64,000 bases of DNA from a virus (Duplodnaviria > Heunggongvirae > Uroviricota > Caudoviricetes), in IMG/VR virus record IMGVR_UViG_2531839524_000004; one strand, 5' to 3'. The notes beneath the pieces were generated by a model that ran no database searches, was not told where the DNA came from, and saw nothing but the letters and a program-made list of their open reading frames with translations. Below are positions 19,193 to 50,802 of the stretch, piece after piece. A program made the translations under genes and the position numbers. Numbering within the stretch: position 1 is the first letter of the stretch; each line of letters begins with the position of its first letter.

Positions 19193-19249
19193 CCTGCTTC
19201 TGTATATATAAATAATAAGTAACTTATTAAATATATATACGGAAGCAGG
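19193..19249. repeat. 57-bp AT-rich palindromic repeat, copy 1
   Basis: cctgcttctgtatatataaataataagtaacttattaaatatatatacggaagcagg; identical copy at 50746-50802. Confidence 0.8.
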
Positions 19250-19286
19250 CTTAATAAGACATGCCCAGACCTAATTAAACAACCCA

Positions 19287-19301
19287 GAAAACAAGTTGGT
19301 T
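19287..19301. promoter_or_regulatory. operator-like palindrome GAAAACAA-G-TTGGTT
   Basis: First of two copies ahead of the small terminase gene. Confidence 0.45.
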
Positions 19302-19312
19302 AGAAAATGCAG

Positions 19313-19328
19313 TAAACAAGTTGTTTTA
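19313..19328. promoter_or_regulatory. operator-like palindrome TAAACAA-G-TTGTTTTA
   Basis: Second copy, about 40 bp upstream of ATG 19367. Confidence 0.5.
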
Positions 19329-19366
19329 GAGCGCATGGACGCGCTCTGTGTGTTTTAGAGGGATCT

Positions 19367-19999
19367 ATGACGGTCGAAAAAGACGAGGTAAAAACTCGCC
19401 TGACACCAGCGGAGTGGGCCGAAGCTGAAGCCAAATGGACGTCAGGCGAATATACACTCTCAAAGCTGGAGGAAGAGTACGGCATTCGTCGTGAAACACT
19501 CTCCAGACATTTCAAAAAGCGAGGATTAGAGAAAGGCGCGGACTCTGTTGGGAAGATGGTTCGTGAGTCTCTTAAATCTGACGCAGAGCTTCGCGCTAAA
19601 GCCCGTGCGGAAAAGATAGAAGAACGTCGTACACGTTATGACGGCTGGGCGTATGCGTTGGGGCAGATGGTGATGGTCGAAGTCACTACGGCCAAACGTG
19701 AGGGTAAGCCTTTAGGGGCGATTGAGGATTCTCTCAAGAGCTTACAGAGAGCCAGTAATACCCTTGCAAAATGCTTTGAAGTTTCGTCCAAAGCATTGGG
19801 CATGGATCATGCGGAAAATGACGAGGAAGAAATTCCGAACCTGGTATTTGGTGAGCTTACGCCTTCCCAGGTGGCGAAATTACGTCAGGAAGACGACGAG
19901 CCTGAAATCATCGATGACGAATTGCTTGAGACGTTGGAAGAAGAAGCTCTAAGCGAATTTGATGCGACAGATGATGGAAGTGAAGGGGAGGACGAATAA
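19367..19999 (+). CDS. terminase small subunit (putative)
   Basis: 210 aa directly upstream of the large terminase; N-terminal HTH-like region and acidic tail; call by position. Confidence 0.6.
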   Translation: MTVEKDEVKTRLTPAEWAEAEAKWTSGEYTLSKLEEEYGIRRETLSRHFKKRGLEKGADSVGKMVRESLKSDAELRAKARAEKIEERRTRYDGWAYALGQMVMVEVTTAKREGKPLGAIEDSLKSLQRASNTLAKCFEVSSKALGMDHAENDEEEIPNLVFGELTPSQVAKLRQEDDEPEIIDDELLETLEEEALSEFDATDDGSEGEDE

Positions 20000-21255
20000 T
20001 GGCAATCCCGTCCTCGCTCAGTCTTGTGCAACTGCATTCTGGACAGATGAAAGTCTTCCAGTCTCCGCATCGATTTAAAGTTGTTTGTGCTGGTCGACGC
20101 TGGGGAAAATCCCGGTTGTCGATCTCCACTATTATTCGTGCGGCGGCAAAGGAAAAAAAGCAAAGGGTCTGGTATGTCGCTCCTACTTACCAGATGGCTC
20201 GCCAGATTTTGTGGGACGATCTACAGGAAGTTCTGCCTCGTAAGTGGGTTAGGAAAAAGAACGACACCACGATGACAATCGTGTTGAAGAACGGTTCGGA
20301 GATCGCCCTCAAAGGTGCTGATAAGCCTGACACTCTGCGCGGCGTAGCGTTGCATTTTGTAGTGCTTGATGAATTTCAGGATATGAAGGCTGACACCTGG
20401 TACAAGGTGTTACGACCTACTCTTTCATCGACACGCGGCGGTGCACTGATCATTGGTACGCCAAAAGGTTTCTCGGAATTTCACAAACTGTGGACTATAG
20501 GCCAGAACGTAGAGCTGCAAAGAAAGGGACAGTGGAAGAGCTGGCAGTTTGTAACTGCCGATTCTCCGTTTGTGCCTACGGCGGAAATTGAAGCTGCTAA
20601 GAACGATATGGACCCGAAATCGTTCGCTCAGGAGTACCTGGCGAGCTTTGAGAACATGTCCGGGCGCGTTTACTACCCGTTCGATCGTAACGTGCATGTA
20701 AAACCGCTTCAGTTCAACCCTCGGTTGCCTATATGGGTAGGGCAGGACTTCAACATTGACCCGATGTCTTCAGTAATTTTGCAACCTCAGCCAAATGGTG
20801 AGCTATGGGCAATTGATGAATTGGTGCTCTTTTCCTCTAACACGGCAGAGGTTTGTGATGAGCTTGAGAGACGCTTCTGGCGCTGGAAATCACAGATAAC
20901 GGTATTTCCAGATCCGGCAGGTGCTTATCGCCAACATGCTCGCGGGGAGTCTGACGTCGACATATTCAAAGAGAAGGGATTCTTACGTGTCGATTATTCG
21001 AAAAAGCCCCCGCCAATTGCGGATCGTGTTAATGCTGTTAACCGAATGCTGATGACCGCATCTGGAGATATCCGGTTGTATATCGATCCGAAGTGCAAGC
21101 ATTTGATTGATTCACTGGAAAAAGTCATCTACAAGCCTGGAACACGAGATATGGATAAGACAGGTGGCATTGAGCATAGTGCAGACGCATTGGGCTATCC
21201 AGTACATCGTAGGTATCCAGTCAAAAACCGTGTTATTCTTGGTGGTTCTCGATAG
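19999..21255 (+). CDS. terminase large subunit
   Basis: Walker A VCAGRRWGKS, Walker B HFVVLDEF, C-terminal nuclease-like acidic residues; 418 aa. Confidence 0.9.
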   Translation: MAIPSSLSLVQLHSGQMKVFQSPHRFKVVCAGRRWGKSRLSISTIIRAAAKEKKQRVWYVAPTYQMARQILWDDLQEVLPRKWVRKKNDTTMTIVLKNGSEIALKGADKPDTLRGVALHFVVLDEFQDMKADTWYKVLRPTLSSTRGGALIIGTPKGFSEFHKLWTIGQNVELQRKGQWKSWQFVTADSPFVPTAEIEAAKNDMDPKSFAQEYLASFENMSGRVYYPFDRNVHVKPLQFNPRLPIWVGQDFNIDPMSSVILQPQPNGELWAIDELVLFSSNTAEVCDELERRFWRWKSQITVFPDPAGAYRQHARGESDVDIFKEKGFLRVDYSKKPPPIADRVNAVNRMLMTASGDIRLYIDPKCKHLIDSLEKVIYKPGTRDMDKTGGIEHSADALGYPVHRRYPVKNRVILGGSR

Positions 21256-21281
21256 GTAAGTAATTATCTAAGGTTATTCAA

Positions 21282-22856
21282 ATGGAATTGAACGACAAAC
21301 AAATTAAGGATCTGGTGGCGCGACGCCACCCGGAATACGAAAAGAAAAAAGAACATTGGGACTTCCTCGCCAGCACTTACGCTGGCGGGCGTGGTTGGTT
21401 TACAGACAATATCTTTCGTTACTTTAAAGAGGGAGATCAGGAGTTTAAGGAGCGAGTTGAGCGTGCTTATCGCTTCAACCACACTCGTGAGGTGGTAAAC
21501 CTCATCAACAAATATCTCTTTAAAGAAGACATTCATAGAAATATCGAAGAGGCACCAGAGCAGATCCGCAATTTCTGGAAACGTGCGACTCGCCAGAATG
21601 CCTCTATTGACTCATTTATGGCCGCTATTGATTTGCAGTCGTCTATTTACGGTCGCATATGGGTTGTTGTCGATAGCACGATGAGTGGTGATGTTGAGTC
21701 AGTAGCTGACGAGAAAAAGAAAGATGCTCGCGCCTACGCCTACTGGATTTCACCTCAGCAAATGCTGGATGTGGCATGGGACGACGACGGGAATATGTTG
21801 TGGGCGTTAATTGTGGAAGTCGCTCGTGATGACGCAGATCCTTTTACTTCTACAGGTCAGGAATACCAACGTTATCGTCTGTGGACACAAAACGAGTGGT
21901 ATCTGTTCCGTGAGGAAGTGAAGAAGGGCGCTGGTGGAGCAGGTCGCCGTCAGGCAAAAGTTATTTTAGAGGATAGCGGTGAGCATAATCTCGGCGTAGT
22001 TCCTGTGTTTCCTGTTGATTGTATTGGAGAAAGTGAATCACCGTATTTCAGCCCATCGTTGATCGATGATATCGCTTATCTTGATCGTGCGGTTGCAAAC
22101 TATCTGTCAAACCTTGATGCCATTATTCAGGATCAGACATTTAGCCAGTTGGCTATACCGGTACAGTCGCTTTTACCTGGTGATGAAAACCACACTAAAG
22201 TGCTTGAAATGGGCACAAAGCGAGTCTTCACCTACGATTCTGAAGGTGGAAACCAGCCGTTTTATCTGTCACCAGACCCGAAACAAGCTCAGATGATCAT
22301 CACTACGATTAAGACGGTGATTAACGAAATCTACCATTCAGTTGGTGTAGCTGGTGAGCGAACGAAGCAGGACAACGCACAGGGAATCGATAATTCATCT
22401 GGTGCCGCAAAAATGTATGACTTCCAGCGTGTAAATAGCTTGCTTGTCACAAAAGCAGAGCGTCTGGAAAGGGCTGAACGCCAAATCATGCTACTGGTTG
22501 CGAAATGGATGGGGGTAGATCTGGACGAAGACCACTCTTTAATTGCGTATCCAGAAAGTTTCGATATTCGTGGCCTTACTGATGAATTTTCTGTTGCCGA
22601 GAAACTGTCATTACTTCAGGCACCGGACTCTGTACGTCGTCACCAGATGGAAATGCTTATTGAGAAGATTTTCCCGAACATTACTGAGGCGATGAAAAAG
22701 GAATTTGATAAAGATCTCTTGAATTTTCCTCCAAAAAATGATCTAAATACCCTTGAAAATAAGTCAGTACTTACTTATGATCGTGGTGCAGCCCAAGAAA
22801 GCGGGCAAGATCAACCCCGAGGGAATGGGGACTCATCTACTCAAGAGAACGAGTGA
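21282..22856 (+). CDS. portal protein (putative)
   Basis: 524 aa immediately after the large terminase; call by size and synteny. Confidence 0.7.
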   Translation: MELNDKQIKDLVARRHPEYEKKKEHWDFLASTYAGGRGWFTDNIFRYFKEGDQEFKERVERAYRFNHTREVVNLINKYLFKEDIHRNIEEAPEQIRNFWKRATRQNASIDSFMAAIDLQSSIYGRIWVVVDSTMSGDVESVADEKKKDARAYAYWISPQQMLDVAWDDDGNMLWALIVEVARDDADPFTSTGQEYQRYRLWTQNEWYLFREEVKKGAGGAGRRQAKVILEDSGEHNLGVVPVFPVDCIGESESPYFSPSLIDDIAYLDRAVANYLSNLDAIIQDQTFSQLAIPVQSLLPGDENHTKVLEMGTKRVFTYDSEGGNQPFYLSPDPKQAQMIITTIKTVINEIYHSVGVAGERTKQDNAQGIDNSSGAAKMYDFQRVNSLLVTKAERLERAERQIMLLVAKWMGVDLDEDHSLIAYPESFDIRGLTDEFSVAEKLSLLQAPDSVRRHQMEMLIEKIFPNITEAMKKEFDKDLLNFPPKNDLNTLENKSVLTYDRGAAQESGQDQPRGNGDSSTQENE

Positions 22857-22877
22857 TAAGTAACAAAAGGAATTTTT

Positions 22878-23765: not shown

Positions 23766-23790
23766 CATCTAAATCAAAGGGAATTGATAG

Positions 23791-24666: not shown

Positions 24667-24698
24667 TCAGTGTAGTAGATAAGTAGTTATCTATGTTA

Positions 24699-24727: not shown

Positions 24728-24739
24728 TAGGAGCGAGAA

Positions 24740-29789: not shown

Positions 29790-32700
29790 CAAGGGAATGT
29801 CACAAAACGTAGAGTTTATCCTGTCGCTGGAAGACAAACAGTTTACAGCGTCAATCGATCGTGCGGGGAAACTGCTTACTCGATTTGGTGAGCAGGTAAC
29901 AAAGCCTGCTCAAAAAATCCAAACCTTTGAACGCTCTTTGGGTTCGGTCGCCCGTATCATTGGCGTTCTGGAAAGCAAGCTCGATTCTACGGCAGATAAA
30001 CTACAGGATGTAGCTGCCTGTTTTGAGCTTGCTTCAGATGCTACGCGTAAAATGCGTGGCAACATCACCAGCCTCAATTCTGGTCTTAAAGCCCTGATTG
30101 AGCGCGTCGATACGACAACTTCTTCAGTAGATAAACTCACCGCGTCATTACGTAAAGTGCAATCAGAGCTAAATGATTTCTCTGATTGGGCGCCCTATGC
30201 AAGCAAAAGCGCAAGCCGCTTTGGTACGGAGGTCAAAGAAGCCTCTGCGTCCGTGAGTGGCATGAATACGCGCCTTAATACCACGACGAAGCGACTCAGT
30301 AATTGGGGTGTCACAACGAGTCAGGCTGCCGAGGGACTGAAAAAGGTTCGTGAGCAGATGGACGAAGTTATCGGACGTCAGCAACTGATTAGCAAGCCGG
30401 TACGCGTTCGTACATCTGGAAGTGGTGATGGTGGTAGCGGGCGGCGTAGCGGCGCTTCTGGCCATAGCGGTAAAAGTAACGAAGGAGGTATGTTCTCTGG
30501 CCTGCGTGGCAACATTTTCCTGCTTGGCGAGATCGGAGATGCAGCCAGAACGGTTACTGACATCATGTTTGGGTGGCAGAAGCCTATTGTTGAAGCTGCG
30601 GCCGAAATGGAACGTATGCGGGTGATGCTTCGAGGGTTGAATAAGGAGAAGTCCAACCCGGGCCAGGCTGCCGCTGATGATATGAAGTACATCGTAGACA
30701 TGGCTCAAAATGCGCCGTTCGCGATGCAGGCGTTAACAGACTCCTTCGTGAAGTTTCGTTCTGCTGGCTTAGATCCAACCGATGGTTCTCTGAAGGCGCT
30801 GGTGGACTCCGTTGCTCGTTTTGGTGGTGATAGTGAGCTGTTGAAACGTGCGGCTGTGGCCGTTCAGCAGATGTCCGGTAAGGGCGTTGTGTCAATGGAA
30901 GAGCTACGTCAGCAATTAGGTGAAGCAGTTCCTAACGCGATGCAGGCAATGGCAGACGCCGCAGGCATCACTATGGGGGAACTGACTAAAGCCGTTGCCA
31001 GCGGTACGGTTGAGGCAAAACAGGCGTTGTCTCTGATGTTTGTTGGTCTGCGTGCGGAGAATGAGAACGCAGCGAAAGACATGATGCAAACCTACACAGG
31101 TGCGCTGGCGCAACTTCAGACGTCATTCACGTTATTTGCTGATCGGGTTGGTCAGGCCGGATATCTGGATTCTCTATCGAAGGGGATGAAAGAACTGGCT
31201 TCAATCATGAATAGCGCCGAAGGGATTTCGTTTGCCAATTCTGTAGGTTCGGGGTTAACAACGGCAATCGATGGGTTGCGTCAGCTTGCTCAATGGTTAG
31301 CAAAGAACCAAGAGCTGGTAATTAATCTCGGTAAGGTCGTGGCCGCGATGGTTGCGTTCAAACTGATGCGAGCAGGGATCATGGGGGTAGTTGGCGCTGG
31401 GAGCCAGATGGTTAGCACCTTTGCCACGATGGCGACCGCCATACAGACTCCATTTAACCTCGGCGCTACAGCAGTAACTCGATTCAATCGTGCGGCACGT
31501 ATGGGGCTGGCTCCGATCCCCTCTCTTATTTTCGCCATCCGTGGGGCGATTACGGGGCTTAAAGGCGCTTTTGCTGGATTAACGGCGTTCATTGCAGCAA
31601 ACCCTATAGGGGCAGCATTTACAGTTGCCACTGTAGCTGTTGCTGGCCTAATCACGTACATGACCATGCTCCGCAGCGAAACTTCAAAGGTCGTTGACGA
31701 GATTAGGAAAATACCAGAAGCGATGACAGCGGCCAAACGTGCACAAATGGCCGACCGCGCAGAAAAGCTCGAAAAGCAGATTCTTGCTGATCAACGAGCA
31801 TTAAAAACTGGTGAGGGTGTTAATTACGTATCTAACTCTGCCGGTGTTATTACTCACAAAGAGTCGAAGGCTGACATCGAAGCACGCCTGAAAAAAAATC
31901 AGGAGGAGTATCAAAAGATAACCGGCACGATAGCTCTTGGTGACGGCGCTGTAGCAAAGCGTTTGGCTAAAGAGGCTGCCGAATCTCAGATTGAGAAAAT
32001 TCGAGCGGAAAACCAGATTTTCGCGGCAACATTCGTGAAAGCCCGGCAAGAGGCTCTGGATAAGATCCAGAAAATCAATGATGACGGTTCACTTTCAGAT
32101 GACGAAAAGAACAAGCTATTGGCACCGTTACGTGAAACGGTAAACAAAAGCTATCTGGAGCCTGCGCAAAAACTGGTTGATTCACTTTCTTCTCGTAAGA
32201 ATGCGACCGAGAAGCAAATTGCGACTCTTAATGATCAGCTTGAAAAAGCCAAAAAGGATGGAAATACCGAGCAGATCCAGAAACTGCAAGGCAGTATTCG
32301 TGGTTATCAGGAGCATTTGGAAGCCGTTGCTCAGGAGCTGACTCAGGCAGAGTTCGAGAGAGATAACGCGGCCAAAACTGGTAAGGGCGTAATGTCAAAC
32401 CAGGGGACTGTTCTTGGGTTAGGTACAACTGATAAAGCTGCTCAGAAGGCGCTGGCGCAATATATGCGAAACCAGATGGATTCTGCGACTTATCAACGTA
32501 CTTTGCCTGACGGCACTCCGATGATGGACTTCGAAGGTAAGCCGATTATTGGGCCTAAACAACTCAAGACGCAGCTTAATTTGCAGAAAGCATCCAGCGC
32601 CAGCTCTCTGGAGAAAATGAGCGATGAAGAGCGTGCCGCAGCCATTGCTGCACTGACTAAAGCTCGTGAACAGGATGCCGCAGCCGCCGAGAAAGCAGCC

Positions 32701-34368
32701 CAACGATCAGCTAACGCCTCGCAGCGTGCGGCCAAGAAGGAACAGGCAGCGCAACAGAAACTGGCAGCCGGATACCAGAAGGCTCTGGACAAAGCCGATC
32801 AGCTTATGGGGCAAATGGGGGAAAGCTCTAAGGCTACGGTATCGTTTGATCAGTCTCTTCGCGATACAACGAAATCGCTGACAGATTTGGCTAATGCGGT
32901 TCCTAACGAGTTCATCACTCAAGAGATGATCGACAAGGCGAAAAAACGTCTTGAAGACCTCAAAAATGCGACACCTGAATATCGCGAGATGTTTAATCGC
33001 CGCAATGTTGAGCAGATGATCTCCACCTGGGCGCCGGAGGCGGATTCCATTATTAGTGCTGGCTATACGCCGTCTCGCGAAGAGAAAGTTGCTGATTTCG
33101 AAGACACCTACAACCGCAATCTCAAAGCGTTGATAGAACTTCGTGATAAGGCGTCTGATCCTAAAGTTGTGGCGCTTTATACAAAGAAAATCAATCAACT
33201 GATTGCTGCTGGCAATACCGCGCTTATTAAAGAGACGGGGACTGCGACGCAGAAGTTGGCACTGGAATACGAAAACCTGGCAGAGCAGATCGAAAGCACC
33301 TGGACTGATTTGTTTAGTGGCTTAACTGATGTCCTGACTGATTTCGTTATTAACGGGAAGATGAGCTTCTCCAGCCTATCTCAGTCCATTTTGAAAGATA
33401 TCACCAATATGGTCGTGAAGTCGCAAATCACGCTGCCTCTAATGAACATGTTGGGGATGGGAACCACCGCAGCTGGTAGTTCACAGAGTGGCAATTTGCT
33501 CACTGGAGTTGCTTCTGCCGTTGCCAATCAAGGTGTACGAATGGGCAACACTGTTAATGGCGACAAGTCGGTAGGAGAAGCCACGAAGGAGACGTCCAGT
33601 TCGGGAACTGGATTGGGGCAAACAACACAGCAGACCACCAGCGCAATTGGCACAGCAACAAATGCGATTGGTAGCTGGGTATCGGGGCTATTTGATAGCA
33701 CCGAAGCCAAAGATGCTGAGACAAAAGCAGTGAAGGACTCCATCTTCTCGATGCAGAACCTCAGCTCTGTTACCGGCGCTCTGTCTGCCGCGTTTGCAAT
33801 GCTTGGAGCTAATGCTTCCGGCTCTGGTAATAAGTGGTTGAATTTCGGCGCGACAGTTGCATCTGGTTTGGTTTCAGTATGGGCTGGTGGTGGATTCGAT
33901 GGATTGATGTCCGGTTCTTCTGGCTCAACTTCCGGGTTCAACAATCTGACCAGTTCTGCTGCCGATGGCACGAATGGTATTCCTGCAATTCCGAAGTTTG
34001 CAAATGGTGGCATATTCGGAAAAGACGGCGTGATCCCGCTCCGGGCATACCAGAAAGGCGGTATCGCCAACTCACCTCAATTGGCGTTGTTTGGGGAAGG
34101 CGATATGAATGAGGCGTATGTTCCATTGCCTGATGGTCGAACAATCCCTGTAACGCTCAGTACCGATGGTATGAGTGGAGGAGGAAATGTTCTTTCTCCG
34201 GTATCAATTGAGATCAACGTCCATAGTGACGGTAGCACAACTGAATCCGGCGATACAGAAAGCATATGGAACAATGCCGCTCAACGGATGAAAGCAATCG
34301 CGCTTGAGACTATCGCTCAAGAGAAACGCCCTGGCGGATCACTCAACCCAAACACTCAACGTAACTAA
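29776..34368 (+). CDS. tail tape measure protein
   Basis: 1530 aa, long helical regions and glycine-rich C-terminal stretches, placed between chaperone and M/L/K/I/J-like genes. Confidence 0.9.
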   Translation: MAEDDKGMSQNVEFILSLEDKQFTASIDRAGKLLTRFGEQVTKPAQKIQTFERSLGSVARIIGVLESKLDSTADKLQDVAACFELASDATRKMRGNITSLNSGLKALIERVDTTTSSVDKLTASLRKVQSELNDFSDWAPYASKSASRFGTEVKEASASVSGMNTRLNTTTKRLSNWGVTTSQAAEGLKKVREQMDEVIGRQQLISKPVRVRTSGSGDGGSGRRSGASGHSGKSNEGGMFSGLRGNIFLLGEIGDAARTVTDIMFGWQKPIVEAAAEMERMRVMLRGLNKEKSNPGQAAADDMKYIVDMAQNAPFAMQALTDSFVKFRSAGLDPTDGSLKALVDSVARFGGDSELLKRAAVAVQQMSGKGVVSMEELRQQLGEAVPNAMQAMADAAGITMGELTKAVASGTVEAKQALSLMFVGLRAENENAAKDMMQTYTGALAQLQTSFTLFADRVGQAGYLDSLSKGMKELASIMNSAEGISFANSVGSGLTTAIDGLRQLAQWLAKNQELVINLGKVVAAMVAFKLMRAGIMGVVGAGSQMVSTFATMATAIQTPFNLGATAVTRFNRAARMGLAPIPSLIFAIRGAITGLKGAFAGLTAFIAANPIGAAFTVATVAVAGLITYMTMLRSETSKVVDEIRKIPEAMTAAKRAQMADRAEKLEKQILADQRALKTGEGVNYVSNSAGVITHKESKADIEARLKKNQEEYQKITGTIALGDGAVAKRLAKEAAESQIEKIRAENQIFAATFVKARQEALDKIQKINDDGSLSDDEKNKLLAPLRETVNKSYLEPAQKLVDSLSSRKNATEKQIATLNDQLEKAKKDGNTEQIQKLQGSIRGYQEHLEAVAQELTQAEFERDNAAKTGKGVMSNQGTVLGLGTTDKAAQKALAQYMRNQMDSATYQRTLPDGTPMMDFEGKPIIGPKQLKTQLNLQKASSASSLEKMSDEERAAAIAALTKAREQDAAAAEKAAQRSANASQRAAKKEQAAQQKLAAGYQKALDKADQLMGQMGESSKATVSFDQSLRDTTKSLTDLANAVPNEFITQEMIDKAKKRLEDLKNATPEYREMFNRRNVEQMISTWAPEADSIISAGYTPSREEKVADFEDTYNRNLKALIELRDKASDPKVVALYTKKINQLIAAGNTALIKETGTATQKLALEYENLAEQIESTWTDLFSGLTDVLTDFVINGKMSFSSLSQSILKDITNMVVKSQITLPLMNMLGMGTTAAGSSQSGNLLTGVASAVANQGVRMGNTVNGDKSVGEATKETSSSGTGLGQTTQQTTSAIGTATNAIGSWVSGLFDSTEAKDAETKAVKDSIFSMQNLSSVTGALSAAFAMLGANASGSGNKWLNFGATVASGLVSVWAGGGFDGLMSGSSGSTSGFNNLTSSAADGTNGIPAIPKFANGGIFGKDGVIPLRAYQKGGIANSPQLALFGEGDMNEAYVPLPDGRTIPVTLSTDGMSGGGNVLSPVSIEINVHSDGSTTESGDTESIWNNAAQRMKAIALETIAQEKRPGGSLNPNTQRN

Positions 34369-41643: not shown

Positions 41644-41736
41644 TGGTGGAAAAAAAATTTTATATCGGTAAGAATAGGTAAGTACTTACTTAATGGCGGG
41701 CAAGGATAGCCCGCCAAATCAAGGAGCATATTCAAC

Positions 41737-44700
41737 ATGTGGTACAGGGAAGGTACTATCACATTTACACAGGGTAGCAATACTCTGGTTGGGGCAGGGA
41801 CAGCCTGGAACGTAACAGCTAATGGGGTGTTGCCTGGGATGATCGTCATTGGCCCCGACAACAAGCTGTATGAGATCAAGCGCGTAACCAGTGATACGAA
41901 CATTGTTCTCTCAGAACCTTATACCGGCGAAACTCAGTCTGAAGTTCCGTGCCGAATCATTACGACCTATGAAGGCGACTTAACACAGTTTAGCGCGCGC
42001 TTTACTGCACTAATGTCGCGTATGTCGGCTGATTCCAAGTCCATGCGCAGTTGGTTGACTGCTCTGGATGAGGTGACAATCGAGCGTGAAGACGGTACAG
42101 AAGTGACCGTTAAGCCGCTAATGCAGATCGTCAACGAGCACAACGAAAACGTTGAGTGGTATAAAAATAACACTGACGCGATTGATGCTGCTGGCGACAA
42201 AGCTCGTGAGGCGGCGGCCAGTGCTGCCGCAGCAGCAGAAAGCGCCAATACCGCTGGAGAAAAAGCCTCTCAAGCGTCTCAAAGTGCATCCGCTGCGGCA
42301 TCCTCACAAAGTGCTGCAAGTGCGAGCGCAACTGCTGCGAAAAAATCTGAAACGAACGCACAAGCCGCAAAAGAAGCGGCAGCAGAATCAGCATCTTTAG
42401 CGTCGGCCAAAGCATCGGAGGCAGCAACATCTGCGTCCAGTGCCTCTGCATCTAAGGATGCAGCCAAAGCATCAGAGACTAACGCTTCATCGAGCGCAAA
42501 CGCGGCAGCATCATCGGCAACAGAAGCTGCAAATTCGTCTAAGGCAGCAAAAACGTCAGAGGCAAACGCAAAAGCATCTGAAACGGCAGCCGAACAGAGT
42601 GCATCGTCTGCAAACAGTTCGAAATCTGCGGCAGAAGCGTCAGCAAGCGCAGCCTCAGCAAGTGCGGATAGTGCTTCATCAAGTGCAACAGCGGCAGGAA
42701 AATCTGCGGATAGCGCATTGTCATCAGCGACAACAGCTACCACAAAAGCGACAGAGGCGACGAGTCAGGCTACAGCTGCTAAAAATTCAGCATCTGCAGC
42801 AAAAACCTCTGAAACAAATGCAAAGACTTCAGAAGACAATGCTGCTTCCTCTAAGGCGGCAGCTGCTGAATCTGCAAGTTCTGCGTCTGCATCAGCCTCC
42901 TCAGCATCCGCTTCAAAAGATGAGGCGACCAAGCAGGCATCAGAAGCGAAGGGCAGTGCTTCAACGGCATCCACGAAAGCAACAGAGGCGGCAGGCAGTG
43001 CGACGGCTGCATCTCAGAGCAAAACTGCTGCTGAATCCGCTGCGACCCGTGCGGAAGCTGCTGCTGATCGTGCTGAAGAGATTGCCGGTGCAGTTGCGAT
43101 GGAAGACGCAAGCCTTACAACTAAAGGTGTTGTGAAACTTAGCAGTGCTGTCGATAGCACCAGTGAATCGCTGGCCGCAACGCCAAAAGCAGTTAAAGCA
43201 GCCAATGACAATGCGAATAGCAGGGTGCCATCTAACCGAAAAATTAACGGAAAAGCACTGACTGCGGATATAACATTAACGCCGAAAGATATTGGTACTT
43301 TAAATTCAGTAACGATGTCTTTCTCTGGCGGGGCTGGGTGGTTCAAACTGGCTACGGTTACCATGCCACAAGCGAGTTCCATCGTTTACATCACATTGAT
43401 TGGTGGTGCTGGATATAATGTTAACTCCCCTATGCAGGCTGGTATATCTGAACTTGTTCTTCGTGCGGGAAATGGAAATCCAAAAGGTCTTACTGGTGCG
43501 TTATGGCGAAGGACATCGGTTGGATTTACTAATTTTGCATGGGTGAATACATCCGGCGATACATATGATATTTATGTTGAGATTGGCAATTATGCGACGA
43601 GTGTAAATGTCCACTGGGATTGTACTGCAAATGCGTCAGTTTCTATTTATACATCGCCAACATATTCAGCGAGTAAGCCTGCCAGCGTTACCGATGGTGT
43701 TGTTTATACGATGTATAGCTCACATCAGAAACCTACGCCATCAGATATTGGAGCACTGCCAACAACCGGAGGAACAGTTTCTGGTCCGTTGTCTGTTACA
43801 GGCGGATTAACTGGTTCATTGAATGGTAATGCAAGTACAGCAACGAAATTACAGACGACAAGAACTATCGGCGGCGGGAGCTTTGATGGTACTGCAAATA
43901 TTAATTTGCCAGGTGTTAATACGACTGGTAATCAGAATACAACAGGTAATGCGGCTACTGCTACGAAGTTGCAGACTGCGCGTACTATTAATGGGGTGTC
44001 GTTTGACGGTTCGGCAAATATTTCCTTGTCACCAGCAAATATAGGTTGCCCGGCATCTCCTACTGGTTGGTTAACTACAGGAAGTAATGGCGGAGCAATA
44101 ACAACAGCCCAGTTAGTGACGTTATTGCAAAATAATGGAGCCTTTAACACAAAGGCATGGATTGCTCGATGTGCGTGGGCCTATGCCAATAGCGCAACCA
44201 TACCAAATAGTGAAACTGGTTGTGGCGTTATTCCATTGGCAGGAGCTGTTATAGAAGTATTTAATAACGGTAGTAGTTCAAATAATTATACGATCCGCAT
44301 AACAACGGCCACAACGACAAGTGTTTCCGGTGCTCTCACTAATGCGGAGTTTATCTATGTATTTAATGGCACAGATTATTCTCCAGGATGGCGAAGAGTA
44401 TATAACACGAAAAACAAACCAACTGCATCTGACGTTGGTGCATTACCTCTTACCGGTGGTACATTATCTGGAGGTTTGACATCTTCTGGTGAGATCGTTT
44501 CAAAATATGCAAATGGTTTCCGCATTGCTTACGGTAGCTTTGGGTTCTTTATCCGTAATGACGGCGGCAGCACATATTTCATGCTAACAGCATCAGGAGA
44601 TACGTTAGGTTCATGGAACGGCTTGCGACCGATTACAATTAATAATACTAGCGGGGTTGTGTCTATTGGTAATGGACTAAATGTTACTGGTGGCGTAAAT

Positions 44701-45645
44701 GGTAGTTTGAACGGTAATGCTTCAACAGCTACGAAGTTGCAAACAGCGAGAAACATCAATGGTGTTAAGTTTGATGGCTCAGGCGATATCAACATTAATA
44801 CATTGGTATCTCGTGGCCGAGTTACGGCGTTAAGCGGCTCTACTCAAGGCACTGCTGGCATTCAAATGTACGAGGCGTACAACAATAGCTATCCGACCAC
44901 GTATGGCAACGTATTGCACATGAAAGGTGCGAGTGCTGCTGGCGAGGGTGAGTTGCTTATTGGCTGGAGTGGTACGAGCGGTGCACATGCGCCGGTTTTC
45001 ATTCGCTCCCGAAGAGATACCACTGATGCAGCATGGTCAGCGTGGGCACAGGTATATACCGCTAAGGATTCAATCCCTGGTGTGAATACAACCGGTAATC
45101 AGAACACTACTGGTAATGCTGCCACCGCCACAAAATTGCAGACAGCAAGGAAAATTGCTGGTGTGGCGTTTGATGGCTCTGCCGATATTACTTTGACTGC
45201 GGCTAACCTTAATGCCTATACGAAAACAGAGGTAACAAACCTTCTAAGTTCCTATGTGAAGAGCAGTTCTCTTCCAAGCATGACTGTGCGAACTTCCTCT
45301 GTTTCAGGTGGGGATATGGGCATGAGTTTGTCCGCATTCATTAGCCACCTTAAATCAAATGGGGCGTTTAGCAAAAGTTATTGGATTGGCTTTGGCGATG
45401 CTATGGGATTCAATGCTGGCAGTATCAACAATATAACGGGATTTGGTGCTGTAGAATTAGCAGAATCCATAATCGAAGTTTTTAATCTACCTAATGGTGA
45501 TTATACAATTCGTTTAACGACGTCACACAAAGCTGACTACGGTGGGATTACAAACGCAATCCTCGTTTATCACTACCGCAGTAATAGAAACCCGGCAGGT
45601 CAATGGCTTAAATTTGCCGGTACTCTTGGGGCTACAAACAACTGA
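41737..45645 (+). CDS. tail fibre protein
   Basis: 1302 aa; about 300-aa Ala/Ser-rich repeat region and four copies of GN(A/S)(A/T)TATKLQT(A/T)R.I.GV.FDGS. Confidence 0.8.
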   Translation: MWYREGTITFTQGSNTLVGAGTAWNVTANGVLPGMIVIGPDNKLYEIKRVTSDTNIVLSEPYTGETQSEVPCRIITTYEGDLTQFSARFTALMSRMSADSKSMRSWLTALDEVTIEREDGTEVTVKPLMQIVNEHNENVEWYKNNTDAIDAAGDKAREAAASAAAAAESANTAGEKASQASQSASAAASSQSAASASATAAKKSETNAQAAKEAAAESASLASAKASEAATSASSASASKDAAKASETNASSSANAAASSATEAANSSKAAKTSEANAKASETAAEQSASSANSSKSAAEASASAASASADSASSSATAAGKSADSALSSATTATTKATEATSQATAAKNSASAAKTSETNAKTSEDNAASSKAAAAESASSASASASSASASKDEATKQASEAKGSASTASTKATEAAGSATAASQSKTAAESAATRAEAAADRAEEIAGAVAMEDASLTTKGVVKLSSAVDSTSESLAATPKAVKAANDNANSRVPSNRKINGKALTADITLTPKDIGTLNSVTMSFSGGAGWFKLATVTMPQASSIVYITLIGGAGYNVNSPMQAGISELVLRAGNGNPKGLTGALWRRTSVGFTNFAWVNTSGDTYDIYVEIGNYATSVNVHWDCTANASVSIYTSPTYSASKPASVTDGVVYTMYSSHQKPTPSDIGALPTTGGTVSGPLSVTGGLTGSLNGNASTATKLQTTRTIGGGSFDGTANINLPGVNTTGNQNTTGNAATATKLQTARTINGVSFDGSANISLSPANIGCPASPTGWLTTGSNGGAITTAQLVTLLQNNGAFNTKAWIARCAWAYANSATIPNSETGCGVIPLAGAVIEVFNNGSSSNNYTIRITTATTTSVSGALTNAEFIYVFNGTDYSPGWRRVYNTKNKPTASDVGALPLTGGTLSGGLTSSGEIVSKYANGFRIAYGSFGFFIRNDGGSTYFMLTASGDTLGSWNGLRPITINNTSGVVSIGNGLNVTGGVNGSLNGNASTATKLQTARNINGVKFDGSGDININTLVSRGRVTALSGSTQGTAGIQMYEAYNNSYPTTYGNVLHMKGASAAGEGELLIGWSGTSGAHAPVFIRSRRDTTDAAWSAWAQVYTAKDSIPGVNTTGNQNTTGNAATATKLQTARKIAGVAFDGSADITLTAANLNAYTKTEVTNLLSSYVKSSSLPSMTVRTSSVSGGDMGMSLSAFISHLKSNGAFSKSYWIGFGDAMGFNAGSINNITGFGAVELAESIIEVFNLPNGDYTIRLTTSHKADYGGITNAILVYHYRSNRNPAGQWLKFAGTLGATNN

Positions 45646-45848
45646 TTTAGGGATTATTTATATGGCTGTGTGGTTTAAAAATGCGATTTCACAGCCGCAA
45701 TCATAGGGATATATTAGTGAGTTACTAGATGCGAATATGAACAACCGTTAAACGGTATATGTATAGGTAGGTAAGTATATACCTACAATTAAAAGGAGAA
45801 GTGTGATATAAATCCGCCATCCCGATTTGACTTTTCACGGAGGAAAAC

Positions 45849-46172
45849 ATGTCGAACGAGATGGCGGGCGTTACAACAGAGCAAGTTGAGCGTATTGCCG
45901 CGATCGTTGCTCGGGAGGTTGTTGGCAAATTAGGCAAAGAGCTACGTGAAGAAATTGGCCAGGAGGTCAATGATCAGCTGAAAACCTACTTTGGTGATAT
46001 GACCCCGGCGCAACATAGTATTCAACACTCCAACCTGGACAAGCTCCTTAACCGGTTAGATTCCATCTCCAGTGGGTTCTTTGGCGGCATTGTTTCTAAA
46101 ATAACGTCGTTCATTATTACTGCACTGCTTTTGGGGTTAGCCGCGTATGGCGTAAAAAATGGACTGCAATAA
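45849..46172 (+). CDS. hypothetical protein with C-terminal transmembrane helix (possible holin)
   Basis: 107 aa; single hydrophobic segment ITSFIITALLLGLAAYGV near the C-terminus; first gene of the apparent lysis cassette. Confidence 0.35.
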   Translation: MSNEMAGVTTEQVERIAAIVAREVVGKLGKELREEIGQEVNDQLKTYFGDMTPAQHSIQHSNLDKLLNRLDSISSGFFGGIVSKITSFIITALLLGLAAYGVKNGLQ

Positions 46173-46185
46173 CAGGAGATCAAGG

Positions 46186-46878: not shown

Positions 46879-46879
46879 T

Positions 46880-47131
46880 ATGCTAGGCAGCCTGATGACA
46901 AAGCTCAAAGTTGCTTTGATTACGCTGGCTGCCGTTCTTTTCGTTCTGGTCGGCGCTTACACGATGGGCGGAAATGCGGCGCGACGAGCAATGGAAGAGA
47001 AGGCAAAACAGGAAGACAGGAAACGACTTCAAAGCACAGTGGACGTCAAAAATGAAACACTTGATGAGTTACGGCGCAAGGATGCTTCTACTGTTCATCA
47101 TGAGTTGCACAATAAGTGGTTGCGTGATTAA
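46880..47131 (+). CDS. i-spanin (Rz-like)
   Basis: 83 aa; N-terminal TM helix then charged coiled-coil region. Confidence 0.6.
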   Translation: MLGSLMTKLKVALITLAAVLFVLVGAYTMGGNAARRAMEEKAKQEDRKRLQSTVDVKNETLDELRRKDASTVHHELHNKWLRD

Positions 47132-47282
47132 GCCTCAATCCTCTGGTGTGCTTTTCTGCGATGCGGCTACACCGCTATACATCAGCCGTGATGATCTCAT
47201 GACCGAAGAGACTGAAAGGGAAGTACTTTTTCACAATATGATAGGGGAGCGATTGTGTGGATGGGGCAGAAAAGTGCCATAA
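47052..47282 (+). CDS. o-spanin (Rz1-like), overlapping the i-spanin gene in another frame
   Basis: MKHLMSYGARMLLLFIMSCTISGC: lipoprotein signal with lipobox; begins inside the Rz-like gene and runs past its stop. Confidence 0.6.
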   Translation: MKHLMSYGARMLLLFIMSCTISGCVIKPQSSGVLFCDAATPLYISRDDLMTEETEREVLFHNMIGERLCGWGRKVP

Positions 47283-47456
47283 TAAAAGCGGAATTTTCTA
47301 ACATAAAATTTGCATATTATTAGAGCACAAGGTAGATTTGAAGCATGGATGTCAAGTAAATCATACCTTGTTTTAATAAATCGACGCATACTCGTAGCCT
47401 CTAAACCGACAAGGTCGCCGCTATGACATAAAGTTATTACCGGCTAAGGTGGAAAC

Positions 47457-47855
47457 ATGCATACTGCACTTAACGCATCTCGTTCTATTCAGACGATAAG
47501 AGACTGTACCAAGATGATCGCATCGGTTCCGTTGCGACATTGGAATGACTCGCTCCAAATTCGTGAAATGAACAAACCGGGTATGCTTAAGGATCAGCGT
47601 TTCATCGTTAACCTTAAAAGTGACGTTGAAGAAGGCAAGTTTACCATCAAATTGTTTGCAGAAATGATGGTGCTCAACAATCGGTTACGTTTTCTTGTTA
47701 AGCCAGAAAAACAGTTTCCCGATGTTGTGCGTTGTGAACAGGATGCTTTCTATGAGATTGAAAGCAAAATAGCTAAATTTATCAAAGATAAATACCGCGT
47801 AGATGTTAAAATAGCGAAACTGGATTCATCTACGGATATGCGGCTTGCTAACTAA
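47457..47855 (+). CDS. hypothetical protein
   Basis: ORF track, 132 aa. Confidence 0.45.
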   Translation: MHTALNASRSIQTIRDCTKMIASVPLRHWNDSLQIREMNKPGMLKDQRFIVNLKSDVEEGKFTIKLFAEMMVLNNRLRFLVKPEKQFPDVVRCEQDAFYEIESKIAKFIKDKYRVDVKIAKLDSSTDMRLAN

Positions 47856-48632
47856 ATGTCACCATCATTCATAGCAGAGTATTCAAAAGTACTGTCTGGT
47901 TTCCCTGAATGTGAAGCAAGAGAGAAAATCAGAGTTGGCTACATGGTTAACTCTGATTTTTCTGTTTTACGGCTCACAGAGTGGTCCTTGATCGGGTCTA
48001 ATTATGATTACTGTTTGACAGTGTCATTTGTAGGCGACCCTGATGCAGATTGGCTTCAAGAACATGCAATGGATCTTGACGAGCAGGGGTATTCAGAAGC
48101 AGAGATAGTTCATAGTGTTCGTGAATTAGTTGGTGATGAGCAAGAAGATGATGACGGCATTCAGATCGCCAGGTTCGTCTACAAACGATTCCAGTTTCGC
48201 TCACAAAAAGGCTCTCATCTTGGGGTCCAGATTAAAGGGGCATTTGTAACCCCTTCAAAGGAACAAAAGGGACTTGCTAGAAGAGTTTACAATTTCCTTC
48301 TCAATTGGCATGACCATGTGGTATGTGATGACCATCAGACGGTTTACGGTGCCAGAATTTGGGCGGTCGGTATGCTTCTGGTCGGGCGTGTCCAAATCTA
48401 TGACAATTTAAACAAAGAATTTATAGATGTCCTTGTTGAAGGTGGTATTGGGCAGAATGGCGTCAAACCGTGGGACGCGCTGCTATTGAGCAGCGAGGCC
48501 CAGTTACGTCACTGGAACCCTATGGCCGTCAGCATAGACCCATCTAGTCAGATTCTCGCCATCATCTCCAAAGAAGACCGTCACATTGAAGTGGGCGTTA
48601 CAACTTTTGACGCCAGGTCTACCAACCATTAA
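47856..48632 (+). CDS. hypothetical protein
   Basis: ORF track, 258 aa; starts directly after the previous stop. Confidence 0.5.
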   Translation: MSPSFIAEYSKVLSGFPECEAREKIRVGYMVNSDFSVLRLTEWSLIGSNYDYCLTVSFVGDPDADWLQEHAMDLDEQGYSEAEIVHSVRELVGDEQEDDDGIQIARFVYKRFQFRSQKGSHLGVQIKGAFVTPSKEQKGLARRVYNFLLNWHDHVVCDDHQTVYGARIWAVGMLLVGRVQIYDNLNKEFIDVLVEGGIGQNGVKPWDALLLSSEAQLRHWNPMAVSIDPSSQILAIISKEDRHIEVGVTTFDARSTNH

Positions 48633-48637
48633 TTCCT

Positions 48638-48660
48638 AAACCCGCTTCGGCGGGTTTTTG
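48638..48660 (+). terminator. intrinsic terminator
   Basis: aaacccgc-ttcg-gcgggttt followed by TTG. Confidence 0.65.
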
Positions 48661-48737
48661 ATGTTTCAGTTTCTTTATCAACCTACTAATTAACCTTTAC
48701 ACCGCAGCCGTAGGCATTTAGGCTATATCACATATAA

Positions 48738-48753
48738 GAAAACAAGTTGTTTC
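48738..48753. promoter_or_regulatory. operator-like palindrome GAAAACAA-G-TTGTTTC
   Basis: 35 bp upstream of the parA-like start. Confidence 0.5.
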
Positions 48754-48787
48754 AGACGATAATTATATACGCAAAGGGAACTCTCCA

Positions 48788-49456
48788 ATGACCAAGATCT
48801 TTGTGGTTGGCGGCACAAAGGGCGGGCCTGGCAAATCCACCGTTGCCCAGCAAATTGCCGTTTGCCTGAAAGTCAAAAAGAAGAAGAAGGTTTATATCAC
48901 TGATATAGATATTCAGCGCACGACAACAAGCTGGTGTGAAGACCGTCGACAGAACGAAGACCTTGAGCTGATTCCTTTTGCATACGTTCAGGATGACATC
49001 ATTAAGCACCTAAAATCGCTTCAGGGTAGAGCTGAGTTTGTAGTGGTAGATGCTGGTGGCTTTGACTCCGAAATTCAGCGACAAGCGATGCTGATGGCCG
49101 ACGTTATCATTATCCCGCTGCGTCCTAAGCGTCGTGATTTGAAATCTTTACGTGACATCGATCCTATTATCGACAATGTTCGTAATGTAAACGATAAAGT
49201 GAAGGTCCGCGCGGTCATGAACCAGTGCCCGGCTTTGCCATCACAAGTGTCTCGCATTTTGGCGGCTAAAGAGATTGTCGAGACGTTTGGCATCGAGTCT
49301 GCGCCAGTCAATTTATATAACCGCAACGTCTATGATGATGCGGAAGAGTCTGGTCGTTCTATCTTTGAAATGACCGGTAGCGAGCGCGACAAAAAGGCGG
49401 AAGCCGAGTTTGAAGAATTTGTAGATTATCTGTTGAGTCTGGAGGAAGAAGAATAA
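48788..49456 (+). CDS. ParA-type partition ATPase
   Basis: Deviant Walker A GGTKGGPGKST, Walker B-like FVVVDAGG; 222 aa. Confidence 0.85.
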   Translation: MTKIFVVGGTKGGPGKSTVAQQIAVCLKVKKKKKVYITDIDIQRTTTSWCEDRRQNEDLELIPFAYVQDDIIKHLKSLQGRAEFVVVDAGGFDSEIQRQAMLMADVIIIPLRPKRRDLKSLRDIDPIIDNVRNVNDKVKVRAVMNQCPALPSQVSRILAAKEIVETFGIESAPVNLYNRNVYDDAEESGRSIFEMTGSERDKKAEAEFEEFVDYLLSLEEEE

Positions 49457-49815
49457 TGTCCATGAAAATGGGTGACCTAGCAAAGCGCAAAGAGCCTGAT
49501 GCACCGGCTAAGAACACAACTCCTTTGCGCCAACCAGTCAGACCACAGGGACGCCCGACTCGTGGCAAAGAGAAAATTAAAAGCCGCACAATGTCACTGG
49601 AGGACGAATACTTCGAACTGCTGGAGATGATGAAGTTCATCCCTCGCTTCGAGAAGTTCACTCGTTCTGACGTGATTCGAGCAGCCATTTTCCATCTGGC
49701 AGAGAAGTCACCGCAGGAAATCGAGGACATCGTGAAATTGAATGAGGCGATCACCGCTGCCGATGTCACGATGCGTACCGATGAAATCAAACGAGAGTTG
49801 ATGAAGAAAGGTTAA
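49456..49815 (+). CDS. small partition partner, ribbon-helix-helix-like (ParG-type, putative)
   Basis: 119 aa translationally coupled to parA (TAATG); basic disordered N-terminus then RHH-like MSLEDEYFELLEMM...RSDVIRAAI. Confidence 0.55.
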   Translation: MSMKMGDLAKRKEPDAPAKNTTPLRQPVRPQGRPTRGKEKIKSRTMSLEDEYFELLEMMKFIPRFEKFTRSDVIRAAIFHLAEKSPQEIEDIVKLNEAITAADVTMRTDEIKRELMKKG

Positions 49816-49867
49816 AAATCATGCATTGGCGCGTACATTGCGCCAATGCATAACTACAGTGTCAGCT

Positions 49868-50635
49868 TTATGCCGCGCTAACACTATGTTCAGTCCTAAC
49901 CACCCCAACCTTCACAAAAGGGCTACCGTAGCTTGGTGGCTTCTTGATTAATTTGCCTACATACAGTTTTCTAATATGCTCATCGGCTATTCTGCCAACA
50001 AATTCATAACGTTTTGTGTCGGGGCCAAGAGCTATATCCCTTGTAAAGTACTGCTGAGAACCGGCTTTGACCCAGCATTCAATCTGATAAACTTCCATTA
50101 TCAGCCCACCATATGTAGCGTAGGCATATTTGAGATTCTCGTCTCTTGGAACCTTTGCCCATACGCCACGCGTAGCTTCATATAATGCCAGAGCGGACAT
50201 TCCTGACTTGTAGGTGCTGTTTAGCAGGAAGGCAAGACCGGCGTGCTCAGGAGCAATTTCAGTTTCCTCTTGCAGCACTAAGTGATGGTAGGCGTCCAGT
50301 GATATTCTGCCCATCATGGAACCACTTCCTCGTACCTTATTCGTAAGCTCTCCGACCCCCATAAGGTCGATGCATGTCGCCTCAACAAGTTTGGCTGTGG
50401 TTTCATCCATACCATGACGAAGTATATCTATGCCTAATTTTTTATTAGCCAAAAGTTCTTTGATCCGCATGGATTTGGGAGAGTCATCGGGATACTTGAT
50501 GTGATCGAGACAACGAGTCGATTTGCCTTTTCCTATGTAAAACGGTCTTTTCATCTTGTCTTCTGTATCATAGAGACAGTAAACATAGTATTTAGCCTTA
50601 TCCAATGATCTCGCGTATACCGATAAATCGTCCAT
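49868..50635 (-). CDS. GIY-YIG nuclease-domain protein
   Basis: N-terminal YYVYCLYDTEDK..KRPFYIGKGKSTRCLDH matches the GIY-(10-11)-YIG...R...H layout; 255 aa. Confidence 0.65.
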   Translation of the reverse strand: MDDLSVYARSLDKAKYYVYCLYDTEDKMKRPFYIGKGKSTRCLDHIKYPDDSPKSMRIKELLANKKLGIDILRHGMDETTAKLVEATCIDLMGVGELTNKVRGSGSMMGRISLDAYHHLVLQEETEIAPEHAGLAFLLNSTYKSGMSALALYEATRGVWAKVPRDENLKYAYATYGGLIMEVYQIECWVKAGSQQYFTRDIALGPDTKRYEFVGRIADEHIRKLYVGKLIKKPPSYGSPFVKVGVVRTEHSVSAA

Positions 50636-50745
50636 TATTGCATCTCTTTGCTACTGACTAATGCGTTCTATTTTACACATAAGTTTTTAATCAATTTAAC
50701 AGGCTCAAAGTGTAGAGCTTCTGGGCGTCTAAGACGACAAGTTAG

Positions 50746-50802
50746 CCTGCTTCTGTATATATAAATAATAAGTAACTTATTAAATATATATACGGAAGCA
50801 GG
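50746..50802. repeat. 57-bp AT-rich palindromic repeat, copy 2
   Basis: Identical to 19193-19249; lies in the divergent promoter region between the GIY-YIG gene and gene 50910. Confidence 0.8.

Follow-up and report, generated by a model that had tools for sequence, protein, structure and literature searches.

We analysed an AT-rich imperfect palindrome that occurs twice in a stretch of 64,000 nucleotides (nt) from the Caudoviricetes record IMGVR_UViG_2531839524_000004; this whole stretch is referred to below as the window. The 57-nt sequence, CCTGCTTCTGTATATATAAATAATAAGTAACTTATTAAATATATATACGGAAGCAGG, has exact matches on the + strand at positions 19193-19249 and 50746-50802 (designated s1 and s2, respectively), and no further matches with up to three mismatches were detected in the window (expected number 0, estimated from 100 shuffles), in agreement with the initial annotation, which had reported an identical 57-bp palindrome present in two copies in direct orientation. 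The palindrome includes a GC clamp (CCTGCTTCTG / CGGAAGCAGG) and a TA-rich core; it is asymmetric at T9/G49, in the segments AAATAAT versus ATTAAAT, and in the centre, GTAAC. Because the palindrome is imperfect, the direct orientation of the two copies is meaningful. The identity between s1 and s2 ends precisely at the palindrome edges.

The genes next to both copies are those that had been described at the outset, i.e., s1 precedes the late operon, and s2 is located between a GIY-YIG gene and the replication module. Specifically, s1 is found 24 nt 3' of the stop codon of an 88-aa gene (18902-19168, + strand; phrog_900), the product of which is labelled DNA-binding in some annotations, and 118 nt 5' of the gene for a small terminase or DNA-binding protein (19367-19999, + strand), which opens the packaging and structural block. 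The 88-aa gene closes a five-gene block (15977-19168) that encodes two ParB_N proteins, two ABC-type ATPases and the 88-aa putative DNA-binding protein, and that is conserved throughout the phage-plasmid family described below, plasmid pMT1 included. The second copy, s2, marks the left edge of the replication module, between the GIY-YIG gene (LEM-3-like, PF22945; 49868-50635, minus strand), the occupant of a variable cargo slot on the left side of s2, and the first replication-module gene (50910-51659, + strand; phrog_2500), which encodes a 249-aa protein and is followed by genes for a DnaB-like helicase and a primase. Sequence searches of the PDB with the 249-aa and the 88-aa proteins yielded no matches, and a single-sequence structure model of the 249-aa protein (pLDDT 47) was too poor for use.

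Folded as a single strand, the 57-mer forms a stem of 19 bp and one of 7 bp, which are separated by a 2x2 internal loop and capped by a 3-nt loop. The folding energy on the + strand is -36.3 kcal/mol for s1 (z = -9.6) and -32.9 kcal/mol for s2 (z = -8.3), whereas the minus-strand fold is 4 kcal/mol weaker because a U-G pair turns into a C-A mismatch. In a scan against Rfam 15, the hairpin did not reach the gathering score of any family and produced only sub-threshold look-alikes of microRNA precursors; the only Rfam matches at the gathering score in the window are three tRNAs (RF00005) in a cluster at 59746-59989. Literature searches found no paper describing this element or the genome ends of phage SSU5, and they yielded no mapped RNA ends.

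Distribution of the palindrome in the phage-plasmid family

By its sequence identity, the window belongs to the SSU5/pHCM2 family of phage-plasmids, as a representative from E. coli: Escherichia phages CMS-2020a, PhiR41_1 and Cyrano match it at 98-99% identity, and Salmonella phage SSU5 does so at about 85%. There are 836 related plasmids in PLSDB, from Klebsiella, Escherichia, Enterobacter, Yersinia (pMT1), Salmonella, Citrobacter and Cronobacter. A scan of a complete relative revealed a third copy of the palindrome, s3, which in the same genome type is located outside the window, 3' of a DNA methylase gene. In PhiR41_1 (107,998 bp), s3 is found at 13435 (13435-13487), s1 at 45582 and s2 at 75115; in SSU5, s3 is at 78304 (78304-78360), s1 at 103263, where it spans the record junction, and s2 at 33458; in CP057798.1, the closest plasmid relative of the window, s3 is at 92913 (92913-92967), s1 at 62564 and s2 at 31256. 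All three copies share their orientation with the genes. The third copy follows the methylase gene by 23-27 nt, and the distance between the stop codon and the stem is 22-27 nt at every site, whatever the upstream gene (window, PhiR41_1, SSU5 and Cyrano). In the window, s2 is separated from the partition genes by the inserted GIY-YIG gene. By their positions, the three copies divide the circle of approximately 108 kb into three predicted gene blocks of approximately 30, 31 and 47 kb: (i) early and accessory genes; (ii) packaging, structure, lysis and partition; (iii) replication, recombination and nucleotide metabolism.

In IMG/VR, 66 loci were obtained with a pattern scan, a looser scan yielded 120, and anchoring on flanking proteins yielded 80 loci per site. 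The s1 copies are syntenic in approximately 80 IMG/VR loci and 800 plasmids, and all genuine copies (approximately 300 loci, including every IMG/VR copy) are found in the s1, s2 or s3 context. This survey of relatives, which the initial annotation had suggested as a check, thus gives three syntenic copies per genome, conserved family-wide. The s1 locus is present on plasmids in 216 of the 5,426 complete E. coli genomes. It is the best conserved of the three and the sole copy retained in Y. pestis pMT1; s2 accompanies the replication module and is missing from pMT1, which has a different module. Among the GTDB genomes (one per species), detection of the element was limited to Kluyvera, Buttiauxella and Y. 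pestis, in SSU5-like contigs, and to one metagenome-assembled genome. Because every copy is syntenic and the GTDB matches are confined to SSU5-like contigs, the element is not a mobile repeat of the miniature inverted-repeat transposable element type, a candidate that we discarded. Thus, the distribution indicates that the 57-mer is a family-specific intergenic hairpin of SSU5/pHCM2/pMT1-type phage-plasmids that occupies three fixed places.

A comparison with the repetitive extragenic palindromic sequences and bacterial interspersed mosaic elements (REP/BIME), and with the enterobacterial repetitive intergenic consensus (ERIC), is instructive in this respect. These, too, are imperfect composite palindromes that lie between genes, in transcribed DNA where operons end, and are homogenised by conversion. 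However, there is no sequence similarity to the present element, which belongs to one phage-plasmid family and occupies three fixed sites, compared to hundreds of scattered ones.

The exact identity of s1 and s2 is not the rule. Among 35 genomes in which both sites were recovered, s1 equals s2 in seven, and the copies are 1-14 edits apart in the others; in one lineage, all three copies are within three edits of each other and have private changes in common. Copy pairs from the same genome are slightly more similar than shuffled genome pairings (p = 0.034). The usual length of the element in relatives is 55 nt: CP057798.1 carries identical 55-nt copies at s1 and s2, and the window carries the same additional TA in both; this TA, in the right arm, renders the (TA)4 tracts of the 57-nt form symmetric. 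Episodic gene conversion between paralogous copies appears to be the simplest account of the exact identity. The suggestion that perfect identity in non-coding DNA implies either constraint or recent copying holds in both parts, given the family-wide conservation and an identity that gene conversion probably explains best. It should be noted that the 57-nt form at s1 was absent from the 216 complete E. coli genomes with the locus (the best match is 99.5% identical, with a 2-nt gap), and that the shared 57-nt form may represent a systematic assembly or indel error in the identical (TA)n contexts of the source assembly.

Conservation and pairing of the arms

The arms of the palindrome (CCTGCTTCYGTATATA / TATATACRGAAGCAGG), which form the GC clamp, hardly change between E. 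coli and Salmonella, Klebsiella or Yersinia; variation among relatives is found in the AT-rich centre and in the length of the (TA)n tracts. In the outer 14 pairs, 95.5% of the cells are paired on the + strand (27 distinct arm variants). Changes on both sides of a pair were detected at three positions, from C-G to U-A at two and from U-A to G-C at one. Three such pairs were reached in 20 of 500 shuffles. In deep lineages, in which the methylase is 62-64% identical, s3 retains a long GC-clamped AT-rich hairpin with altered, mutually complementary arms (CCTTGCTCCCATA / TATGGGAGCAAGG and GCCGTGTTCC / GGAGCACGGC); for the two deepest lineages, the follow-up scan yielded s3 copies only. This pattern of substitutions indicates that the hairpin structure is under selection.

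A different kind of change is found in Klebsiella NZ_CP103584.1 and its relatives. At the s3 and s2 positions of this lineage, the palindrome is cut down to a remnant of the right arm, and the remnant is followed by a canonical GC hairpin with a U-run; at s1, the hairpin is kept and a long U-run follows. What is conserved, as far as these comparisons go, is the structure and, at the Klebsiella replacement sites, a terminator.

Terminator-like features and strand bias

Several properties of the element coincide with those of intrinsic terminators. The copies in the window form a stable stem-loop on the + strand (-32.9 to -36.3 kcal/mol, z between -8 and -10), and are located just 3' of a co-directional gene or operon. 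We further counted runs of at least four consecutive T over the distinct tails immediately 3' of the stem. For s2, such runs are present in 10 of 14 tails on the + strand and in one of 23 on the minus strand; for s3, the respective counts are 8/14 and 0/12. In the window, the U-rich tail TCTTTT (50803-50808, + strand only) follows the s2 stem directly (the window s2 tail is TCTTTTAAAAG), and s3 is followed on the + strand by the U-run CTGTTTTG or CTTTTT. The same strand preference is seen in the stems: the s2 hairpins are more stable as + strand RNA in 24 of the 29 variants (-22.5 versus -18.4 kcal/mol), and at s2, 30 wobble pairs form in the + strand only, compared to three in the minus strand only. 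The bias is milder at s1 (11 versus 3).

We therefore favour the interpretation that the element functions as an RNA hairpin by which transcription is ended or insulated at the borders between modules, although for actual termination or insulation we would claim only about an even chance. The hairpin would act in the + strand transcript, where the GC-clamped AT-rich stem-loop would form behind RNA polymerase and would end read-through from the upstream block or insulate the downstream block from it. At s2 and s3, a stem and a U-run on the + strand only would represent intrinsic-terminator anatomy. Because there is no U-run at s1 in this lineage, that copy may act merely by pausing the polymerase or by stabilising the 3' end of the upstream transcript, or may be a processing site. 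Episodic gene conversion between the paralogous copies would then yield the exact identity of s1 and s2. Bidirectional terminators had been listed among the possible functions of the palindrome; a terminator is the best-supported of the alternatives proposed there, but the copies look unidirectional, pointing along the + strand.

The resemblance to known intrinsic terminators, including lambda tI/sib, consists in a stable GC-based stem-loop 3' of a gene block, with a U-run at s2 and s3 on the transcribed strand only; as in lambda sib, a larger stem is possible in read-through RNA only, in which the outer arm described below can pair. The differences are a stem of 26 bp composed mostly of A and U, a hairpin of 55-57 nt, a U-run of 4-5 U, and a U-less s1. 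In addition, and unlike in ordinary terminators, one and the same sequence recurs at three sites and is preserved among genera.

Other observations weigh against termination, or at least against termination alone. At s1, none of the distinct tails has a run of at least four T on either strand (0/15 on the + strand and 0/10 on the minus strand), with the exception of the divergent Klebsiella lineage. The wobble-pair bias is missing at s3 (8 versus 11), and the wobble counts are phylogenetically non-independent, so that mutation bias or shared ancestry could contribute to them. Neither copy in the window is called by a scan for consensus terminators that required at least five T in eight positions. 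Compared to the usual intrinsic terminator, the hairpin is exceptionally long and rich in A/T, and it has a short U-run of 4-5 U. The tails after the s3 hairpins with altered arms (loci L325 and L326) are not U-rich, so that these arms support selection for a hairpin and not for intrinsic termination. Finally, 18 of the 32 arm columns are invariant, compared to flanks that are 76-85% identical, which is more conservation than a stem requires, and simple termination does not account for the outer repeat, TCTGGGAG / CTCCCAGAC, described below. The terminator case is good only for s2 and s3; the arm conservation, the outer TCTGGGAG boxes and the U-less s1 leave real room for a role at the DNA level or in RNA processing.

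A separate, canonical terminator-like hairpin (19327-19358, + strand), consisting of GAGCGC..GCGCTC followed by TGTGTTTTAG, immediately precedes the ribosome-binding site of the gene for the small terminase. The terminator scanner does call this hairpin (19327-19348), and it is kept in SSU5 and in the Klebsiella relatives, which suggests antitermination control of the late operon.

The composite outer repeat

The inner palindromes are parts of larger composites. At s1, the composite (19171-19271, + strand) adds pairing flanks and the outer inverted repeat GGTCTGGG (19171-19178) / CCCAGACC (19264-19271), and folds as a rod of approximately 45 bp (-52.8 kcal/mol, z = -10.0). At s2, the composite (50720-50826, + strand) has a weaker outer repeat, TCTGGG (50720-50725) / CCAGAAC (50820-50826). 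Copies of TCTGGGAG upstream and of CTCCCAGAC downstream flank all three sites in most lineages, and further CCAGAMC boxes follow downstream with a phasing of 11 or 21 nt. However, CCAGA is common genome-wide (169-208 copies, compared to approximately 100 expected); the phasing is therefore only suggestive, and the interpretation of these boxes as iterons was set aside. Because the downstream outer arm lies beyond the U-run, it can pair in read-through RNA only.

This last property is relevant to RNA processing or retroregulation, i.e., the possibility that the long rod is, like lambda sib/tI or the intergenic T7 sites, a substrate for RNase III in read-through RNA, cleavage of which would separate the mRNAs of adjacent modules and stabilise them differentially. 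The inner stem of 26 bp and the s1 composite of approximately 45 bp (-52.8 kcal/mol) are both sufficient for RNase III, an outer arm 3' of the U-run that pairs in read-through RNA only is in line with such a role, and the U-less s1 fits a processing site better than a terminator. The RNase III sites of phage T7 are likewise repeated, sequence-conserved intergenic hairpins: as in the present family, several related long hairpins separate the gene blocks of a genome with a single direction of transcription. However, the element has three copies only, and the T7 sites have no U-runs. Moreover, the outer arms are invariant and thus provide no evidence of covariation, and the lineage in which the palindrome was replaced took plain terminators, not long stems. 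On balance, we regard RNA processing as decidedly unlikely to be the principal function.

Under another possibility, the composite palindrome is a cis-acting site in DNA that is bound, as a duplex or as a cruciform, by an element-encoded protein, and could be a dispersed operator or centromere, or else an origin, or a programmed point of entry, for recombination-dependent replication in the lytic phase. Consistent with this possibility, the arms are almost invariant across genera, and no single arms were found in a complete relative; the outer boxes (TCTGGGAG / CTCCCAGAC) are conserved, with phased CCAGAMC boxes downstream; the core is a GC-clamped segment of approximately 37 nt of almost pure A/T; and s2 moves with the replication module, such that pMT1, with a different module, is without s2. 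Potential partners are also available. Two ParB_N proteins and the 88-aa putative DNA-binding protein are encoded directly upstream of s1, and, according to the annotations of SSU5 and plasmid records, the family encodes a recombinase and an exonuclease / AAA ATPase plus metallophosphoesterase pair, which we take to be putatively SbcCD-like.

Conversely, both arms change in a complementary manner in the deep lineages, ordinary terminators substitute for the element in one lineage, and the half-sites often differ by transitions that keep RNA pairing on one strand. The abundance of CCAGA detracts from the boxes. There is no origin-like switch of GC skew at either copy; we examined GC skew as an indicator of a replication origin and rejected it, since the skew tracks gene orientation only. 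The family also invites comparison with the N15 centromeres and the RK2 KorB operators, where a few copies of a palindrome are arranged around a plasmid-prophage genome beside phage blocks and ParB-family genes are present. Those sites, however, are perfect palindromes of 13-16 bp with a known ParB, compared to a unit of 55-100 nt here, and s1 persists in pMT1 even though that plasmid presumably uses another partition system. Overall, a DNA-level site is unlikely, though by no means negligible. The stricter version, in which the three composites are not terminators at all but cruciform-prone DNA control points with TCTGGGAG boxes that an element-encoded protein recognises, seems to us improbable. 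The candidate recognisers would be the 88-aa protein, the ParB_N proteins, the 249-aa protein or the putative SbcCD-like hairpin nuclease. If this version is true, the composites would represent spaced entry points for recombination-dependent lytic replication, or operators or centromeres that couple plasmid maintenance to the phage blocks.

Genome packaging and the ends of database records

The location of s1, 118 nt 5' of the small terminase gene, raises the possibility that this copy is the cos or pac site of the phage, and that the other copies are relics or secondary sites. SSU5 and Cyrano, the sole records derived from phage isolates, begin in the right arm of s1, 1 nt apart, and s1 surpasses the other copies in conservation and is the sole copy in Y. 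pestis pMT1. However, draft contigs from bacterial isolates also break in the palindrome, both at s1 (L171, L209) and at s2 (L101, L105); since these assemblies do not come from virions, the record ends are indicative of an assembler outcome at a repeated hairpin. Furthermore, the large terminase matches Terminase_6N and Terminase_3, and its distant relatives include those of Salmonella and Escherichia phages of 41-45 kb and of phages of 91-122 kb, which, from their names and sizes, we take to be Jersey-like and T5-like and not cos phages. A packaging site is also expected to be single, whereas there are three equivalent copies, of which only s1 adjoins the small terminase gene. A packaging function is thus very unlikely.

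Recombination, the GIY-YIG gene and the cargo slot

According to the initial annotation, recombination between the two direct copies might excise or invert the module of 31.5 kb between them, with the copies serving as substrates for homologous or site-specific (integrase or GIY-YIG) recombination. The perfect identity over 57 bp, the direct orientation and the presence of a tyrosine recombinase gene (62382-63485) are compatible with this model, and the palindrome is often a mosaic joint between lineages (L381, L406, L401). We built chimeric queries for the deletion (the left flank of s1, the palindrome and the right flank of s2), the inversion, and the circle (the left flank of s2, the palindrome and the right flank of s1). 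Of these, the deletion and inversion queries were run against PLSDB, and neither junction was found as one contiguous place in any of the 481 matching plasmids. Moreover, a genome has three copies of the palindrome rather than a pair, and the architecture differs from that of lox, att, res or dif sites: the arms are approximately 16 bp long and are separated by a variable AT-rich spacer of 19-25 nt instead of a spacer of 6-8 bp. Most palindrome-bearing relatives have no GIY-YIG gene, and a degraded 62-kb derivative from E. albertii is not the product of a clean exchange between s1 and s2. Excision or inversion of the module between the copies is therefore not supported by the records and is, in our judgement, extremely unlikely.

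The E. albertii record itself (NZ_CP126909.1, 62,344 bp) is a degraded SSU5-like element without structural genes and with a large inverted segment; it retains s2 and carries one solo composite palindrome beside a RelE/ParE pair. The integron attC site was also considered and rejected: the palindrome arms are CCTGCTTC / GAAGCAGG, and there is neither a conserved GTTRRRY at the edges nor a set of R''/R' core motifs (RYYYAAC ... GTTRRRY).

A functional link between the palindrome and the GIY-YIG protein, which had been proposed because the gene adjoins one copy, is unlikely, since the same palindrome stands beside other, quite different cargo genes in the relatives. The GIY-YIG gene does not belong to the conserved element. 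The variable cargo slot extends from the partition genes to s2 (49816-50745) and is occupied in the window by this LEM-3-like gene, in Cyrano by the gene for a 267-aa protein, in SSU5 by DUF2971 and other genes, and in Klebsiella by a P-loop NTPase gene or others. Toxin-antitoxin pairs are found near the slot in relatives, and its right boundary is always the palindrome or its TCTGG box.

The homology of most of the 836 related plasmids starts at window positions 50742-50746, i.e., at the left edge of the palindrome, and in the chimeras L381 and L406, an E. coli-type left flank meets an SSU5-type right flank exactly at the palindrome. The element resembles, in this respect, the boundary ('linker') sequences of mosaic phages, because the homology of divergent relatives begins exactly at the palindrome and chimeras are joined there. 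The difference is that this boundary has a conserved structure of its own and, probably, its own function, so that a role in module exchange looks like a by-product.

Implications for the phage-plasmid family

Phage-plasmids of the SSU5/pHCM2/pMT1 type are common in clinical Enterobacteriaceae and include Y. pestis pMT1 and S. Typhi pHCM2; to our knowledge, their regulation is essentially unstudied. The boundary element provides a handle on three aspects of their biology and annotation: (i) the transcriptional separation of the maintenance, replication and virion blocks; (ii) the site of cargo and resistance exchange, considering that the slot to the left of s2 stops exactly at the element; (iii) the fixed assembly breakpoints in drafts of these plasmids. 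It should be noted that public records and draft contigs of this family often start or end in the palindromes, and that such ends need not be physical genome ends. If the copies are terminators only, their recognition is a useful annotation and not a discovery.

Other repeats in the window

The window contains several additional families of repeats. The 13-bp palindrome AAACAANTTGTTT is present in 10 copies, compared to 0.5 expected, all of them intergenic and ahead of + strand genes (5173-5185, 5224-5236, 8020-8032, 8504-8516, 9407-9419, 10171-10183, 19289-19301, 19314-19326, 48740-48752 and 51671-51683). It is usually preceded by ATTTAC or ATTAAC approximately 12 nt upstream, and two of its copies are located between s1 and the terminase gene; on these features, it looks like a dispersed operator or promoter family. 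The motif ATAAGTAAGTA (nTTACTTAT) has 9 copies in the window, compared to 0.75 expected (15958, 21252, 22759-22778, 34755, 41674-41693, 50887 and 58987, with weaker matches at 24675 and 45763), and is found 10-60 nt 5' of the start codons of genes for late functions and replication, among them the replication-module gene at 50910 that follows s2. Near the tRNA cluster, there are three inverted repeats (59198-59286, 59358-59479 and 60299-60376), with arms of 20-22 nt that are 95% complementary and loops of 38-82 nt. Finally, the gene for a tail fibre of 1302 aa contains, at 43825-45206, four diverged coding repeats of 77 nt and a pair of 131 nt.

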